Assembly: GCA_003222535.1 (NCBI GenBank)
Contig: QHWJ01000345.1
Span: 1,546 to 65,545 of the forward strand
Direction: 5' to 3'
DNA length: 64,000 bases
Source of the DNA: Acidobacteriota bacterium
GTDB taxonomy: Bacteria > Acidobacteriota > Vicinamibacteria > Vicinamibacterales > CAVVIG01
The position numbers and the translations under genes were made by a program. Within the stretch, counting starts at the first letter, position 1; each line of letters begins with the position of its first letter. The notes under the pieces are model-generated. The model had not been told where the DNA came from. It did no database searches and saw only the letters and a program-made list of their open reading frames with translations. Positions 2,880 to 64,000 of this stretch are shown one piece after another.

Positions 2880-3982
2880 CGCCGCTCCGCATTCCGTTCC
2901 TATCGCTCGTGCCGGGCGAGGATGCGGCGGACGTGAGAAGCGCGATCGACCGCGTCATTGCCCGTGGATGGTTCGTGCTCGGGCCCGAGGTCGAGGCGTT
3001 CGAACAGGAATTCGCGGCCGCGTCGGGTGCAGCCTGCGCCGTCGGCGTCGGGACTGGCACCGATGCGATCGCCCTCGTGCTGCGCGCGCTCGGCGCCGGC
3101 GCCGGCGACGAGGTGATCACCACTCCCTTGTCGGCCGCTTACAGCGCGCTGGCCATCATGATGGCCGGCGCGCGGCCGGTGTTTGCCGATATCGACCCGG
3201 CCCGCATGACGATCGATCCCGGGCAGATCGCCCGCGCGGTGTCGCCGCGCACGCGGGCACTGCTGCCGGTTCACCTGTACGGGCAACCGGCCGACATGGC
3301 GGCGATCGAGCGCATCGCCGCACGGCACAACCTGGCGATCGTCGAGGACTGCTGCCAGGCGCACCTCGCAACCGCGGGCGGACGGCCGGTCGGCACCATC
3401 GGCGTCGCTGGAGCGTTCAGCTTCTACCCGACCAAGAATCTCGGCGCGCTGGGCGACGGCGGAGCCATTGTCACGAACGATCGCGCGCTGGCCGACCGGC
3501 TCAGGCGGCTGCGAAACGGCGGCCAGACCGACCGGTATCATCATCGGGAACCGGGCATCAATTCGCGGCTGGACGAGATGCAGGCCGCGATTCTGCGCGC
3601 ACGGCTACCGCGGCTCCGGAACTGGACCGAGCGTCGTCGCGCGCTCGCGGCGCGTTACCGCAGCGGGCTCGCCGGCAGCCCCGTGACGGTGCCGCCGGAG
3701 CTCGACCCCGGCCACGTCTATCATCTGTTCGTCGGAAGAAGTGGAGCGCGACGCGATCTGCAGGCGCACCTCGCCGCCAGCGGGATCGAGACGCTGATTC
3801 ATTATCCGGTGCCGATTCCCCGTCAGCCGGCCATGGCGGCGGTCGACCCGGCGGAGTGCCCTGTGGCCGCACGCGTCTGCGACGAGATTCTGTCGCTCCC
3901 GCTTCACCCCGCCTTGCACGACGACGAGGTCGACGCCGTCGCGGCCGCGGTGCGCGTCTTCGAGCCGCGGACAGCGTCCTGA
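2876..3982 (+). CDS. DegT/DnrJ/EryC1/StrS family PLP sugar aminotransferase (ArnB-like)
   Basis: WFVLGPEVEAFEQEFA, SFYPTKNLGALGDGG and INSRLDEMQAAIL are hallmark DegT-family motifs. GTGA overlap with the upstream gene. Confidence 0.9.
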   Translation: MTPLRIPFLSLVPGEDAADVRSAIDRVIARGWFVLGPEVEAFEQEFAAASGAACAVGVGTGTDAIALVLRALGAGAGDEVITTPLSAAYSALAIMMAGARPVFADIDPARMTIDPGQIARAVSPRTRALLPVHLYGQPADMAAIERIAARHNLAIVEDCCQAHLATAGGRPVGTIGVAGAFSFYPTKNLGALGDGGAIVTNDRALADRLRRLRNGGQTDRYHHREPGINSRLDEMQAAILRARLPRLRNWTERRRALAARYRSGLAGSPVTVPPELDPGHVYHLFVGRSGARRDLQAHLAASGIETLIHYPVPIPRQPAMAAVDPAECPVAARVCDEILSLPLHPALHDDEVDAVAAAVRVFEPRTAS

Positions 3983-58883: not shown

Positions 58884-59347
58884 AGAGCGAATCCCTGGAC
58901 GGCCCGCAGCGCGTCCTCGTACCGCAGAGCCTCGATCGGATCGAGCCGGGACGCTTTGAGGGCGGGCAGCAGGCCGCTGACGAGGCCGACGATCATCAGG
59001 ATCGCCGACGTGATCGCCACGAGTTGCACCGACAGCACGAGGTGGATATCGGTCACCCGGCTGGCGTCGTCCAGGAGCTCGGCGAGAAACGGCCGCGGGC
59101 TGAGCAGCCACACGAGCCCCCACGACACCGCGATGCCGACGCCGCCGCCGGCAAACGTCGTCGCCAGGCCCTCGAGCAGGAACTGAAGCAGAATCTCCCG
59201 GCGCTTCGCGCCAAGCGCCTTGCGCACGCCGATCTCACGCGTTCGCTCCTGGACGTTCACGAACATGATGTTCATGATCCCGACGCCGCCGATGGCGAGC
59301 GTGAGAACGCCGATTCGACAGCTGGACGAGGGCCGGACACCGGAAGT
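58874..59347 (-). pseudogene. 3' remnant of a MacB/FtsX-type ABC permease
   Basis: Only the last FtsX domain is present: [36 protein letters not shown]...[10 protein letters not shown]. An in-frame TGA lies at 59348-59350 and there is nothing permease-like upstream. Confidence 0.7.
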
Positions 59348-60988: not shown

Positions 60989-61895
60989 GTGACGCAGCCG
61001 ATGACGCTCGTCGACGTGTTTCGCGCCCGCAAGCGGATTGCGCCGCACGTCCGACCGACGCCGCTCCTGCGATGCGTTCAACGCGGTGATGGCCCGGCTC
61101 GAGCGGCCGGGCGGCGCGCCTCCGCAGCTGGTCACCGCGTCGGCCGGCAATCACGGCCGCGCGCTCGCCGCGGCCGCCGAAACGTTCCGTCTCCCGCTGA
61201 TCGTCTTCACGCCTGCCGACGCGCCGAAAACGAAGCTGGAGGCCATCCGGCGCCATGGCGCCGAGTTGCGCGCCGACGGCCGTGACTACGACGATGCCGA
61301 GCGGCGTGCGAAAGCCTTCGCGACCGACGCCGGCGCCGCGTTCATTTCGCCCTACAACGACGCCGACGTCATCGCCGGCGCGGCGACCGTCGCGCTTGAA
61401 ATCTTCGAAGATGCGCCCGGCACCGATGCGCTGGTCGTGCCCATCGGCGGCGGGGGGTTGATCAGCGGCGTCGCGACCGTGGCCAAAGCCATCGAGGCGC
61501 GCACCGAAGTGATTGGGGTCGAGGCGGACGTGTCGTGTGCATTTCAGACGAGCGTTCGGGCCGGCCGTCTCGTGGAGATCGTGCCGGGCGCCACGCTCGC
61601 CGACGGCCTCGGCGGCAACCCTGACCCCGAAACGATCACCTTCGCCTTCATCCAGCGGCTCGTCGATCGCATCGTCACCGTCAGCGAGGACGACCTGTCA
61701 GCCGCGATCGCCGGCCTCGCGGCGACAGAACATCTCGTGGCCGAAGGCGCGGGCGCCGCCGGGGCCGCGGCACTGGTCGGGAAACGCATCGATGTCCGCG
61801 GCCGCCACGTTGCGGTGATCGTGTCGGGCGGCAATATCGATCGGGCGCGGCTCGCATCGCTGCTGAGCAACGACGCTTCTCAATCCGCCGAGTGA
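60989..61895 (+). pseudogene. threonine/serine dehydratase (PLP fold type II) with an internal deletion plus frame change
   Basis: Frame A reads MTLVDVFRARKRIAPHVRPTPLL (to ~61069). Frame B then reads DAFNAVMA...VTASAGNHG...PIGGGGL...SGGNID. About 26-30 residues are absent, including the SFK PLP-lysine motif expected between TPL and RGAFN. Confidence 0.7.
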
Positions 61896-61917
61896 CGCGA
61901 GCGGTCGGTCCGCGACT
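61884..61917. repeat. dispersed ~33-nt element, copy 2
   Basis: See 34329-34363. Confidence 0.65.
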
Positions 61918-62039
61918 CAGGGCTTGACAACAACACGGTTGATCCAGGCGGCTCCGCGCATTGTGGAGATGGGCGGCAATCGTGCGAAACGGTCCGCCGT
62001 CCTATTCCGGGAACGCCATATTGGTTCGAACCTTCGTCG

Positions 62040-62336
62040 GTCACCGCGAGCGAGGCGAAGAGCGAGTTCGGGCGCGTTTTGGAGATGGCCGTCCAGGGCG
62101 GCGCCGTTGTGATCACGAAGCACGACGCCCCCAAGGCCGTGCTGATCTCGGTTGAGGATTTCAACGCTCTATCGCGGGCGACCGAGACGAGGCTTGATAC
62201 ATTGAGCCACGAATTCGACGCGCTTCTTGCTCGAATGCAGACACCCAGAGCGCGGTTGGGAATGAAATCGGCGTTTTCAGCCTCAGCGAAACAGTTAGGA
62301 AAGGCTGCGGTAGCGGCGGCTCGAAGGCGTGGCTAA
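62040..62336 (+). CDS. Phd/YefM family antitoxin (start codon unresolved)
   Basis: VTASEAKSEFGRVLEMAVQGGAVVITKHDAPKAVLISVEDFNAL is a canonical Phd fold start. The first in-frame ATG (62079) would cut off beta-1 and alpha-1, and no canonical start lies in frame upstream. Confidence 0.65.
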   Translation, partial: VTASEAKSEFGRVLEMAVQGGAVVITKHDAPKAVLISVEDFNALSRATETRLDTLSHEFDALLARMQTPRARLGMKSAFSASAKQLGKAAVAAARRRG

Positions 62337-62351
62337 GGGCCGGGGATCAGG

Positions 62352-63206
62352 GTGCTGGAGCGCGTCATCACCGCAGAGGCCAACGAGCATCCGCAGTCAG
62401 AGGCCTGCGTCCCGTGGTGGAGTTTTTCGAAAACTGTTCTCGCTGCCGCGGCGCTGGTCCTCGTCAGCCGGCGCCGCATCGATCTCGACGGGCCGATCGC
62501 CGGCGCGCCATACACGCTCCGACAGCTGCTGCAGCACACTTCAGGGCTTCCTGATTACGGCCCGATTCCCGAGTACCACGCTGCGGTTGCTGCGCGCGAG
62601 CAGCCGTGGTGCGTCGATGAGCTGCTTCGTCGCGCGAACGCGTCGACGCTGCTCTTCAAGCCCGGCGAGCGATTCGCCTACTCGAACATCGGCTACTTGT
62701 TTGTACGCCAACTGATCGAGCGCGTGGCCGATGCCAATCTGAACACCGCGCTCAGGGCGCTGGTCTTCGATCCACTGGGGATCGAGGGCGCGTTCGTCGC
62801 GAGCACCGTGGAGGAGTTTGACCGGATCGTCTGGAGGAACGCCCGCGGGTACGACCCGCGCTGGGTGTATCACGGGTGCGTCATCGGATCGCTGTGGTGG
62901 GCGGCGGTCTTTCTTCATCGCCTGATGCACGGTGAGCTGCTAGGTCCGGAACCCAAGCGCGCCATGCTCGAACCGCGCCCCTACGACGCGGACGGAGATC
63001 CGCCGCCCGGCTACGGGCTCGGAGTAATGTGTGAGGATAGCGCGCGCGGCCGTCTTGCCGGCCACGCGGGCTCTGGTCCCGGCAGTACGGTTGTTGTGTT
63101 CTCGTTTCTCGATCTGACGACGCCGAGGACGTTAGCAGCGGCAGTGGATGTCGACGACCCCGACACGTTCCCGAAACTCATCGAACATCTTGGAACGCTC
63201 GTTTAA
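62352..63206 (+). CDS. beta-lactamase-family serine hydrolase (short form)
   Basis: SFSK (SxxK), YSNIGY (YxN) and HAGSGPG (HxG) occur in the right order. GTG start, 15 nt after the Phd stop. Confidence 0.75.
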   Translation: MLERVITAEANEHPQSEACVPWWSFSKTVLAAAALVLVSRRRIDLDGPIAGAPYTLRQLLQHTSGLPDYGPIPEYHAAVAAREQPWCVDELLRRANASTLLFKPGERFAYSNIGYLFVRQLIERVADANLNTALRALVFDPLGIEGAFVASTVEEFDRIVWRNARGYDPRWVYHGCVIGSLWWAAVFLHRLMHGELLGPEPKRAMLEPRPYDADGDPPPGYGLGVMCEDSARGRLAGHAGSGPGSTVVVFSFLDLTTPRTLAAAVDVDDPDTFPKLIEHLGTLV

Positions 63207-63849
63207 CCGCAGGGCGAGGCGTCGTCCGTGCATCTATGTGCTCGCTGGAACGAACGGCGCCGGCAACAGCAGTGTAGCCGGCGCGATGTTCCGCCAATCC
63301 GGCGCAGACTACTTCAATCCTGACGAAGCGACAGGGCGGATTCTGGCCGGCAATCCAGGCATTTCGACGGCGGAAGCCAACAGTGCTGCCTGGCACGAGG
63401 GGAAGCGGCTTCTGGAATACGCAATTGCCGAACGTCTGGACTTCGCACTCGAAACCACGCTTGGAGGACATACCATCACCGCGCTTCTCCAGAAGGCGTT
63501 GGCGGCGGGAATCGAGGTGCGCATTTGGTTCGTGGGACTGAGCAGTCCCGAGCTGCATATCGCGCGTGTTCGAGCGAGGGTTGCTCGAGGCGGACACGAT
63601 ATCCCGGAAGAGAAGATTCGTGAGCGCTACGACCAGAGTCGGATCAATCTGATTGAGTTGATGCCGAAAGTCACCGAGCTGAGAGTTTACGACAACAGCA
63701 CTGAAGCGGATCCACACGCTGGCCGACCTCCCCAGCCGATGCTGATCCTTCACCGAGCCGAGCGGAAAATGGTCGAGATGATTGACCTGCCCAAGACACC
63801 TGATTGGGCCAAGCCTCTGGTCGTCGCAGCGATCAAGCTTGTCAAATGA
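63190..63849 (+). CDS. zeta-toxin / COG4185-like P-loop kinase family protein with an atypical Walker A
   Basis: VLAGTNGAGNSS (GxxGxGKS/T with N at the Lys position), YFNPDE, ETTLGG, VRARVARGGHDIPEEKIRERY and RVYDNS are present. A TTG start is proposed at 63190; the ORF track starts at 63148. Confidence 0.7.
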   Translation: MERSFNRRARRRPCIYVLAGTNGAGNSSVAGAMFRQSGADYFNPDEATGRILAGNPGISTAEANSAAWHEGKRLLEYAIAERLDFALETTLGGHTITALLQKALAAGIEVRIWFVGLSSPELHIARVRARVARGGHDIPEEKIRERYDQSRINLIELMPKVTELRVYDNSTEADPHAGRPPQPMLILHRAERKMVEMIDLPKTPDWAKPLVVAAIKLVK

Positions 63850-63855
63850 GCTCAC

Positions 63856-63983
63856 GTTCGCCTGACCGATGACGAACGCCGCACGTTGGAACAGCGTGCC
63901 GACCAGGAAGCACGAACCGTCAGCAATACGTTCGCAAGCAGTTGCGGGACGTGCTCAGCAAGGAAGGAGCGTTACGTGCCTGA
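63856..63983 (+). pseudogene. ribbon-helix-helix (CopG/antitoxin-like) ORF readable only across frame changes
   Basis: One frame reads VRLTDDERRTLEQRADQEARTVS. An adjacent frame continues QYVRKQLRDVLSKEGALRA-stop. The only nearby ATG (63846) is in the second frame and hits a stop after 8 codons. Confidence 0.4.
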
Positions 63984-64000
63984 GCGGCACGTTGGACTTC

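Follow-up and report, generated by a model that had tools for sequence, protein, structure and literature searches.

A Phd/zeta-like locus with an inserted hydrolase gene in a soil Acidobacteriota lineage is probably a decaying toxin-antitoxin remnant

We analyzed a 64,000-nucleotide stretch of the genome of an Acidobacteriota bacterium (contig QHWJ01000345.1, positions 1,546-65,545; referred to here as the window), in which three adjacent genes on the forward strand encode a Phd-like antitoxin, a beta-lactamase-fold hydrolase and a zeta-like P-loop kinase (Table 1). Our data indicate that this locus is probably a decaying, rearranged remnant of a Phd/zeta-like toxin-antitoxin (TA) pair, whose toxin allele is disarmed and whose inserted hydrolase gene is intact, and is not a new three-part system. 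A first-pass annotation of the window had proposed an unusual tripartite TA or defense-like module with a wall-directed effector pair and had offered a disarmed toxin as a fallback. The layout that it described is present in full, namely three open reading frames (ORFs), 15 nt between the Phd stop and the hydrolase GTG, a 17-nt overlap of hydrolase and kinase when the kinase starts at TTG 63190, the motifs SFSK, YSN and HAG, and the P-loop GTNGAGNSS. Its domain calls also agree with Pfam, which returns PhdYeFM, Beta-lactamase and Zeta_toxin. The Lys-to-Asn change that it saw in the kinase is correct as well. We found that the evidence favors the fallback and does not support the module.

Table 1. 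Features at the right-hand end of the window, in window coordinates
Feature	Position	Strand	Basis or remark
PALP (threonine-dehydratase-like) gene, 3' end	61618-61896	+	left copy of a 283-nt segment
DinB-family gene, internal fragment of 77 nt (approximately codons 58-82)	61939-62015	-	rearrangement scar adjoining the Phd remnant
Phd/YefM antitoxin gene remnant	62028-62336	+	homology to canonical members
Phd-like ORF	62040-62336	+	Pfam PhdYeFM_antitox, E 2.5e-14
Left junction copy AGGGCCGGGG	62336-62345		canonical Phd-stop/kinase-start sequence
Hydrolase gene, 284 aa	62352-63206	+	cargo of the 865-nt insert 62346-63210; profile (Pfam Beta-lactamase, E 7.6e-36), motifs and fold model
Right junction copy AGGGCGAGGCG	63211-63221		canonical kinase homology resumes here
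Zeta-like P-loop kinase ORF	63148-63849 (63190-63849 from TTG)	+	native coding part from 63211; Pfam Zeta_toxin, E 1.5e-10; also matches AAA_33
Ribbon-helix-helix (NikA/MobC-like) gene remnant	63850-63983	+	no start, frame break

The kinase belongs to a two-gene module outside the window lineage

We scanned one genome per species for relatives of the kinase, which gave 491 loci, and read the best 80 of them (L022-L101). A Phd gene adjoins the kinase gene in all 80, the Walker A lysine is present in all 80, and the hydrolase gene lies within 5 kb in none. These loci span Acidobacteriota, Rokubacteria, Gemmatimonadota, Methylomirabilia and others, with Vicinamibacterales, Bryobacterales and Terriglobia among them, and their kinases share 60-84% protein identity with the window kinase, which makes this an unusually conserved protein across phyla. 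Among the 120 best kinase protein hits, 118 carry the lysine, while the rest are the window's own Asn-allele cluster and one gene call whose start lies downstream of the P-loop. In the window's own taxonomic family, three genomes hold the plain pair and one holds the hydrolase alone, and the triad was found in 0 of 60 relatives. Outside the window lineage, in all 80 species, the module is strictly one of two genes, Phd and kinase. The canonical loci (as we call the two-gene loci here) that were read in detail sit among other TA pairs, including RES-Xre, HigBA and PIN pairs.

We found the triad in the window's species-level lineage alone, where the sister contigs (L003, L016 of GCA_003222505.1, and L017-L019; drawn from NCBI, JGI and ENA) share 98.7-99.7% DNA identity. 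The first-pass annotation had taken a triad unique to this genome as a sign against a module; it is unique to the lineage, whose contigs are at least 98.7% identical, and not to a single genome. None of the three proteins matched PADLOC-DB (E <= 0.01).

A hydrolase gene sits in the stop/start overlap of the pair

At the canonical junction (...CGC GTG GCT AG...), the GTG of the kinase gene overlaps the TAG stop of the Phd gene, so that the two genes share 8 nt. We aligned each flank of the hydrolase gene to canonical junctions and found that the left flank follows them through ...GCTAAGGGCCGGGG (to 62345) and then departs completely, while on the right flank canonical homology resumes at AGGGCGAGGCGTCGTCC (AGGGCGAGGCG, from 63211) and continues into the kinase 5' end. 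The insert between these points consists of the hydrolase ORF with 6 nt upstream and 4 nt downstream. A complete hydrolase gene has been inserted exactly into the Phd/kinase stop/start overlap. The same 10-11 nt of the original junction stand on both flanks of the insert as an imperfect direct repeat, the pattern that a target duplication or a microhomology-mediated insertion would leave; a generic repeat finder did not report them because the two copies differ by an indel. An alternative that the first-pass annotation itself had raised, a recently inserted middle gene with repeats on its flanks, is borne out in essence as to the insertion and its imperfect repeats, though not as to its age.

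The native GTG of the kinase gene now lies at 62329, out of frame and leading into the hydrolase gene. The kinase starts now available are ATG 63148 and TTG 63190, both within the hydrolase gene, and GTG 63238, the use of which would cut strand 1 of the protein. With the ATG, the overlap of kinase and hydrolase grows to 59 nt. A Shine-Dalgarno-like GGGGA precedes the hydrolase GTG. A scan of 61600-64000 for sigma-70 promoters found none, although such a scan is uninformative for this phylum.

The window kinase lacks the Walker A lysine

The kinase matches PF06414 (Zeta_toxin) over profile positions 4-190 of 199 with 41.3 bits, against a cut-off of 22.3, and no kinase model was found in NCBIfam. 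A Foldseek search with its AlphaFold2 model ranks zeta (3q8x_B, 1gvn_B) and PezT (2p5t) first, with E values of 1e-4 to 6e-3; the TM scores of the structural matches are 0.39-0.47 and the model is of medium confidence (pLDDT 72.8). Sequence searches of the PDB with the kinase returned no match. The P-loop GTNGAGNSS lies at 63247-63273, and Asn40 is encoded by AAC at 63265-63267, where the Walker A motif GxxGxGK[ST] has its lysine. The lysine is therefore absent from the window kinase, whereas every one of the 194 canonical relatives has it. The Walker A lysine has an established catalytic role in P-loop NTPases, and zeta-toxin mutants at this lysine have been reported to be non-toxic. Because of this role, the Asn40 allele should be inactive, with phosphotransfer abolished.

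At the position of the GTxR motif the kinase reads ETTLGG(H/R)T and not EGTxR, as judged by eye without structural superposition. As with the Rv0366c-Rv0367c pair of Mycobacterium tuberculosis discussed below, UDP-N-acetylglucosamine (UDP-GlcNAc) should not be assumed to be the substrate of the kinase. A literature search on COG4185 found nothing.

The antitoxin gene has lost its 5' end

The Phd-like protein belongs to the Phd/YefM family by PF02604 and by TIGR01552 in NCBIfam (1.1e-11). The first-pass annotation had opened its gene at 62040; the frame is right, and the start is not, as the codon at 62040 is GTC. We found no ATG, GTG or TTG in this frame from the upstream stop (61893-61895) to TTG 62079, with the next ATG at 62085. 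Homology to the canonical family begins at approximately 62028 (EPSSVTASEAK...), in the window as in the sister contigs. Canonical Phd proteins carry a conserved N-terminal segment, ...FRNxRGE..EPSSVTASEAK, across phyla in the translated loci; the codon for the aligned Val is not GTG in 56 of the 78 canonical loci tallied, and the antitoxin must start there 7-42 codons further upstream (mostly 15-42). In the window, this N-terminal extension has been replaced by foreign DNA that includes the 77-nt DinB piece on the other strand, and in the sister contig L016 the NCBI annotation starts the Phd gene at an ATT codon. The window does not hold a complete antitoxin gene with its own start adjoining or overlapping the toxin gene. 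From V62040 to the stop, the Phd protein has zero deviations at conserved columns, so that its body and C-terminus are intact.

A direct repeat of 20-22 nt with 81-85% identity links the DinB fragment and the Phd gene (61956-61977 and 62072-62093; GCGCATTGTGGAGATGGGCG and GCGCGTTTTGGAGATGGCCG). Either microhomology that took part in the rearrangement or chance could account for it.

Kinase alleles segregate within the lineage

We found that the Walker A codon is polymorphic within the lineage. The window and the contigs L017, L018 and L019 carry AAC (Asn), while L003 and L016 carry AAA (Lys). Among the listed members of the 90% cluster (n=15), 12 have Asn and 3 have Lys; across the lineage, Asn is present in 13 of 24 sequences. 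Since independent assemblies carry AAC, Asn40 is not a sequencing error, a possibility that the first-pass annotation had named. The Asn allele is otherwise unchanged at conserved columns save for R91Y and F101L, which are lineage-wide, and R91Y is never seen in the 194 canonical sequences. Different substitutions mark other alleles, namely A38G (a P-loop residue), W127L, G107A, R165P or V129M, each at a column with 93-100% conservation among the canonical sequences.

The kinase substitution density of L003 is 4-5-fold higher, synonymous sites included, and this excess may reflect recombination instead. Two further sequences are rearranged. In P0140 (133 aa), an internal deletion joins ...RRARR to IWFVGLSS, and the P-loop and approximately 100 residues are gone. 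P0004 is a mosaic, its first ~50 residues being identical to the triad lineage, including a part read from the hydrolase 3' end, and the remainder being 16% diverged and canonical-like with R91 retained. Recombination with a canonical copy would explain it, as would a chimeric assembly.

The hydrolase is intact and predicted to be cytoplasmic

The hydrolase motifs stand at residues 24-27 (SFSK), 110-112 (YSN) and 238-240 (HAG), with S24/K27, Y110/N112 and H238/G240 showing no variation across the family alignment. Its AlphaFold2 model (pLDDT 93) matches 3wwx, 4y7p, 3pte and 2drw at TMq 0.75-0.81 and E values of approximately 1e-16. Of 77 columns that are at least 90% conserved, the window hydrolase deviates at one, by the conservative change L43I. 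The Pfam match starts at profile position 44, and we considered whether the gene is a 5'-truncated fragment. This was rejected in view of the confident fold model and of the homologs, 105 of the 119 listed outside its own cluster being 270-345 aa long with the same N-terminus.

The first-pass annotation regarded the enzyme as cell-wall-related, a view that its N-terminus does not support. Only 23 residues precede the catalytic Ser (residue 24), and the model folds them into two short strands, so there is no room for a signal peptide. No hydrophobic leader or export signal was seen in the sequence or the model, and the N-termini of the family are alike. Our data suggest that the hydrolase is cytoplasmic, not located at the cell wall, and unlikely to act on the wall in place. 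Its homologs form a large family of 283-300 aa with no more than 72% identity to it and the same N-terminus; in the loci read they are stand-alone genes in unrelated neighborhoods, none of them beside TA genes. The hydrolase is probably the sole part of the locus that still works. Most likely it acts in the cytoplasm as a D-stereospecific amidase/peptidase or as an esterase, with no relation to the TA pair.

We also observed that the enzyme falls in a compact cytoplasmic S12/beta-lactamase-fold subfamily of ~283 aa (P0156-P0274), with 23 residues before the catalytic Ser compared to ~60 in R61. This subfamily is common in soil Acidobacteriota.

The surrounding DNA is rearranged

In the sister contigs, the PALP gene is followed by the DinB piece, the truncated Phd gene, the hydrolase, the kinase and 36 nt of the ribbon-helix-helix (RHH) gene, and then by a 283-nt duplicate of the PALP 3' end, a full DinB gene (-) and an MFS gene (-). 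The left and right copies of the 283-nt segment are 95.4% identical, the right copy lying just past the kinase in the sisters and in C314, another contig of the window's genome. Positions 1-355 of C314 start inside the kinase gene and continue as the right-hand side of the sisters, and in C314, L003 and L016 the full DinB gene is found on the right side of the cassette.

The window departs from this layout near its right edge, 14 nt beyond which the contig ends. Of the RHH remnant, only the first 36-39 nt are common to the sister contigs; from 63889 on (the last ~110-125 nt) the sequence is unique to the window contig, and four private single-nucleotide polymorphisms in the last ~450 nt, from approximately 63567, differ from all sisters and from C314. 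The continuation of the RHH gene was absent from the genome's other contigs, from JGI metagenome contigs and downstream of canonical kinases. The contig end may be a second copy, a join of strains or a chimeric end. The NikA-like match of the RHH remnant is weak (E 0.0026, below cut-off). Direct repeats of host DNA together with this match would fit the integration of a circular element by single crossover, as we infer from these two features.

Two indels further to the left were also seen. The PALP gene (61038-61895) is without 86 nt at 61074/61075 that L016 has (3841-3926) and that encode ...SLKLESLQRSSSFKARG, the pyridoxal-phosphate-lysine motif. Because this deletion removes the motif and shifts the frame, the gene is dead in the window genome, while it is intact (330 aa) in L016. 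At 58995-59082, the window holds 88 nt that are absent from the otherwise 99.6-100% identical L016, an indel polymorphism in a region that the first-pass annotation had flagged as a MacB remnant.

Discussion

We propose that the ancestral locus was a Phd/YefM-type antitoxin gene followed by a zeta-like kinase toxin gene, with the GTG...TAG overlap coupling the two in translation. An unrelated, complete hydrolase gene entered this stop/start overlap in the ancestor of this soil Acidobacteriota species, parting the toxin from the antitoxin and stripping the kinase of its native start. The Phd gene lost its 5' end, with the start codon and presumably also the promoter and operator, at the junction with the DinB fragment, and the cassette was left between duplicated PALP and DinB pieces, beside a mobilization-type RHH remnant. 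With antitoxin expression presumably weak or absent, and its supply and its coupling to the toxin compromised, loss-of-function alleles of the toxin may have been tolerated or favored; the window allele would have arisen by a change of AAA to AAC (Lys40Asn) in Walker A. The layout of the locus, its distribution, the insertion, the Phd truncation and the polymorphism are read from the sequences, whereas the order of these events and the loss of kinase activity are what we infer. Decay is also seen around the locus, in the 86-nt deletion of the PALP gene and the fragmented RHH gene.

Several observations weigh against decay of the pair. The three ORFs are open in every sister contig read, and P0003, P0126 and P0130 keep the lysine with no lesion beyond R91Y and F101L. 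The ratio of nonsynonymous to synonymous substitution rates (dN/dS) of the kinase in the lineage is 0.5-0.66 (5 synonymous and 10 nonsynonymous changes), compared to a canonical median of 0.22, but the test for relaxed selection was not significant, and at so shallow a divergence the flanking genes have the same ratio (p=1.0). We therefore dropped dN/dS as proof of kinase decay, since the flanking genes are equally elevated. Of 22 polymorphic kinase substitutions, 8 fall at conserved columns, compared to 53% expected by chance (p=0.14), and the difference from the hydrolase (1 of 12) is not significant (Fisher p=0.11). The C-terminus of Phd/YefM antitoxins is their toxin-binding part, and in the window both it and the Phd body are without deviation at conserved columns; translation from ATG 62085 (giving 83 aa) or from ATT 62004 could still yield a product that neutralizes the toxin. 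On balance, we still regard a decaying TA remnant as the probable explanation.

The alternative that survives best is a functional neo-operon, in which the three genes work as a tripartite TA or defense-like unit, or in which the TA pair acts as an addiction device for keeping the hydrolase cargo. The arrangement and its three open frames are kept in all lineage contigs, the spacing is tight, and GGGGA precedes the hydrolase GTG; these features, together with the intact Phd C-terminus and the kinase alleles that keep Lys, speak for such a unit. However, since the triad is found in one species-level lineage only, conservation within that lineage is mere shared ancestry. The triad is absent from the 80 species loci and the 60 relatives, the majority kinase allele is without the catalytic lysine, the hydrolase homologs stand alone and PADLOC is blank. 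We consider a neo-operon unlikely. In it, the antitoxin would be a short Phd (from ATG 62085 or ATT 62004), and coupling to the hydrolase would allow translation of the kinase. It is also rather improbable that the insertion made a working unit by cargo capture, such that the TA operon took up an enzyme gene at its stop/start overlap and the addiction module both drives expression of the hydrolase and retains it. If this were true, the Lys/Asn polymorphism would be a sign that selection is still at work in the soil population between an armed and a disarmed version.

The Asn40 protein might instead be kept as a dead pseudokinase with a new role, for example in sequestering the Phd fragment or in binding nucleotide or substrate without turnover. 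Asn is the commonest allele sampled (12 of the 15 listed cluster members, 13 of 24 lineage sequences) and its conserved columns are unchanged apart from R91Y and F101L. However, the other alleles are differently damaged, one of them by a deletion, which resembles decay and not a selected new function, and Asn occurs in 0 of 194 relatives outside the lineage; we regard a pseudokinase as decidedly improbable. An error of sequencing or assembly behind the Asn codon or the gene order has next to no likelihood: the nearby contig end, with its unique ~110-125 nt and private polymorphisms, might suggest a join of copies or strains, but the doubtful part begins downstream of the P-loop, AAC recurs in L017-L019, and the full gene order recurs in L003 and L016-L019, which are independent NCBI, JGI and ENA assemblies.

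Read as a decaying remnant, the locus is a clear example of chromosomal TA decay, in which an insertion breaks coupling, truncation affects the antitoxin, and toxin alleles without function then segregate in the population. It also serves as a caution that tight packing of three genes does not make a system. The triad itself is of little consequence. More attention is merited by the family of N-terminally extended Phd and zeta-like kinase pairs, which is widespread and conserved, with no PDB relative detectable by sequence and no NCBIfam model.

Comparison with known systems

Among the closest known systems are epsilon/zeta and PezA/PezT, whose toxins are UDP-GlcNAc kinases (1gvn, 3q8x, 2p5t). 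Like the window kinase, these toxins are P-loop phosphotransferases of the Zeta_toxin family and are its top Foldseek hits; the antitoxin gene lies immediately upstream, as it does in the canonical relatives of the window kinase. However, the window kinase shares 10-14% identity with them at TM scores of 0.4-0.47 (for a model with pLDDT 73), the antitoxin here is of the Phd/YefM type, no GTxR-type motif is evident by eye, and the Walker lysine is Asn.

A non-canonical PezAT-like pair, Rv0366c-Rv0367c of Mycobacterium tuberculosis, combines a zeta-family kinase with a non-epsilon antitoxin that is predicted to be of the RHH type (PMC6362051). The Rv0366c toxin is bacteriostatic and neutralized by the upstream gene, and it is without the UDP-GlcNAc-binding residues, its substrate being unresolved (PMC6362051). 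Likened by description, this pair and the locus studied here share the combination of a zeta-family kinase with a non-epsilon antitoxin and differ in the antitoxin itself, which is RHH there and Phd/YefM here. Phd/Doc and YefM/YoeB share the antitoxin fold and family (PF02604, TIGR01552) and the antitoxin-first, overlapping layout of the canonical loci. The toxin here is a zeta-family kinase, in contrast to these systems, and the canonical antitoxins here have an extra N-terminal extension of 15-42 residues.

The hydrolase resembles enzymes of MEROPS family S12, including the R61 DD-peptidase (3pte), a D-stereospecific amidohydrolase (3wwx), an alkaline D-peptidase (4y7p) and a D-amino-acid amidase (2drw), in its fold and its SxxK, YxN and HxG motifs. 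It differs from them in sequence (19-24% identity), in an N-terminus that is ~40-60 residues shorter and in having no signal peptide.

Finally, tripartite TA systems such as omega-epsilon-zeta, HigBA-SecB-like toxin-antitoxin-chaperone systems and PaaR-PaaA-ParE also consist of three adjacent genes on the same strand, including a toxin and an antitoxin gene. Their third gene encodes a regulator or chaperone and accompanies the pair from lineage to lineage, whereas the third gene here encodes an enzyme, co-occurs with the pair in 0 of 80 loci elsewhere and breaks the translational coupling of the pair.

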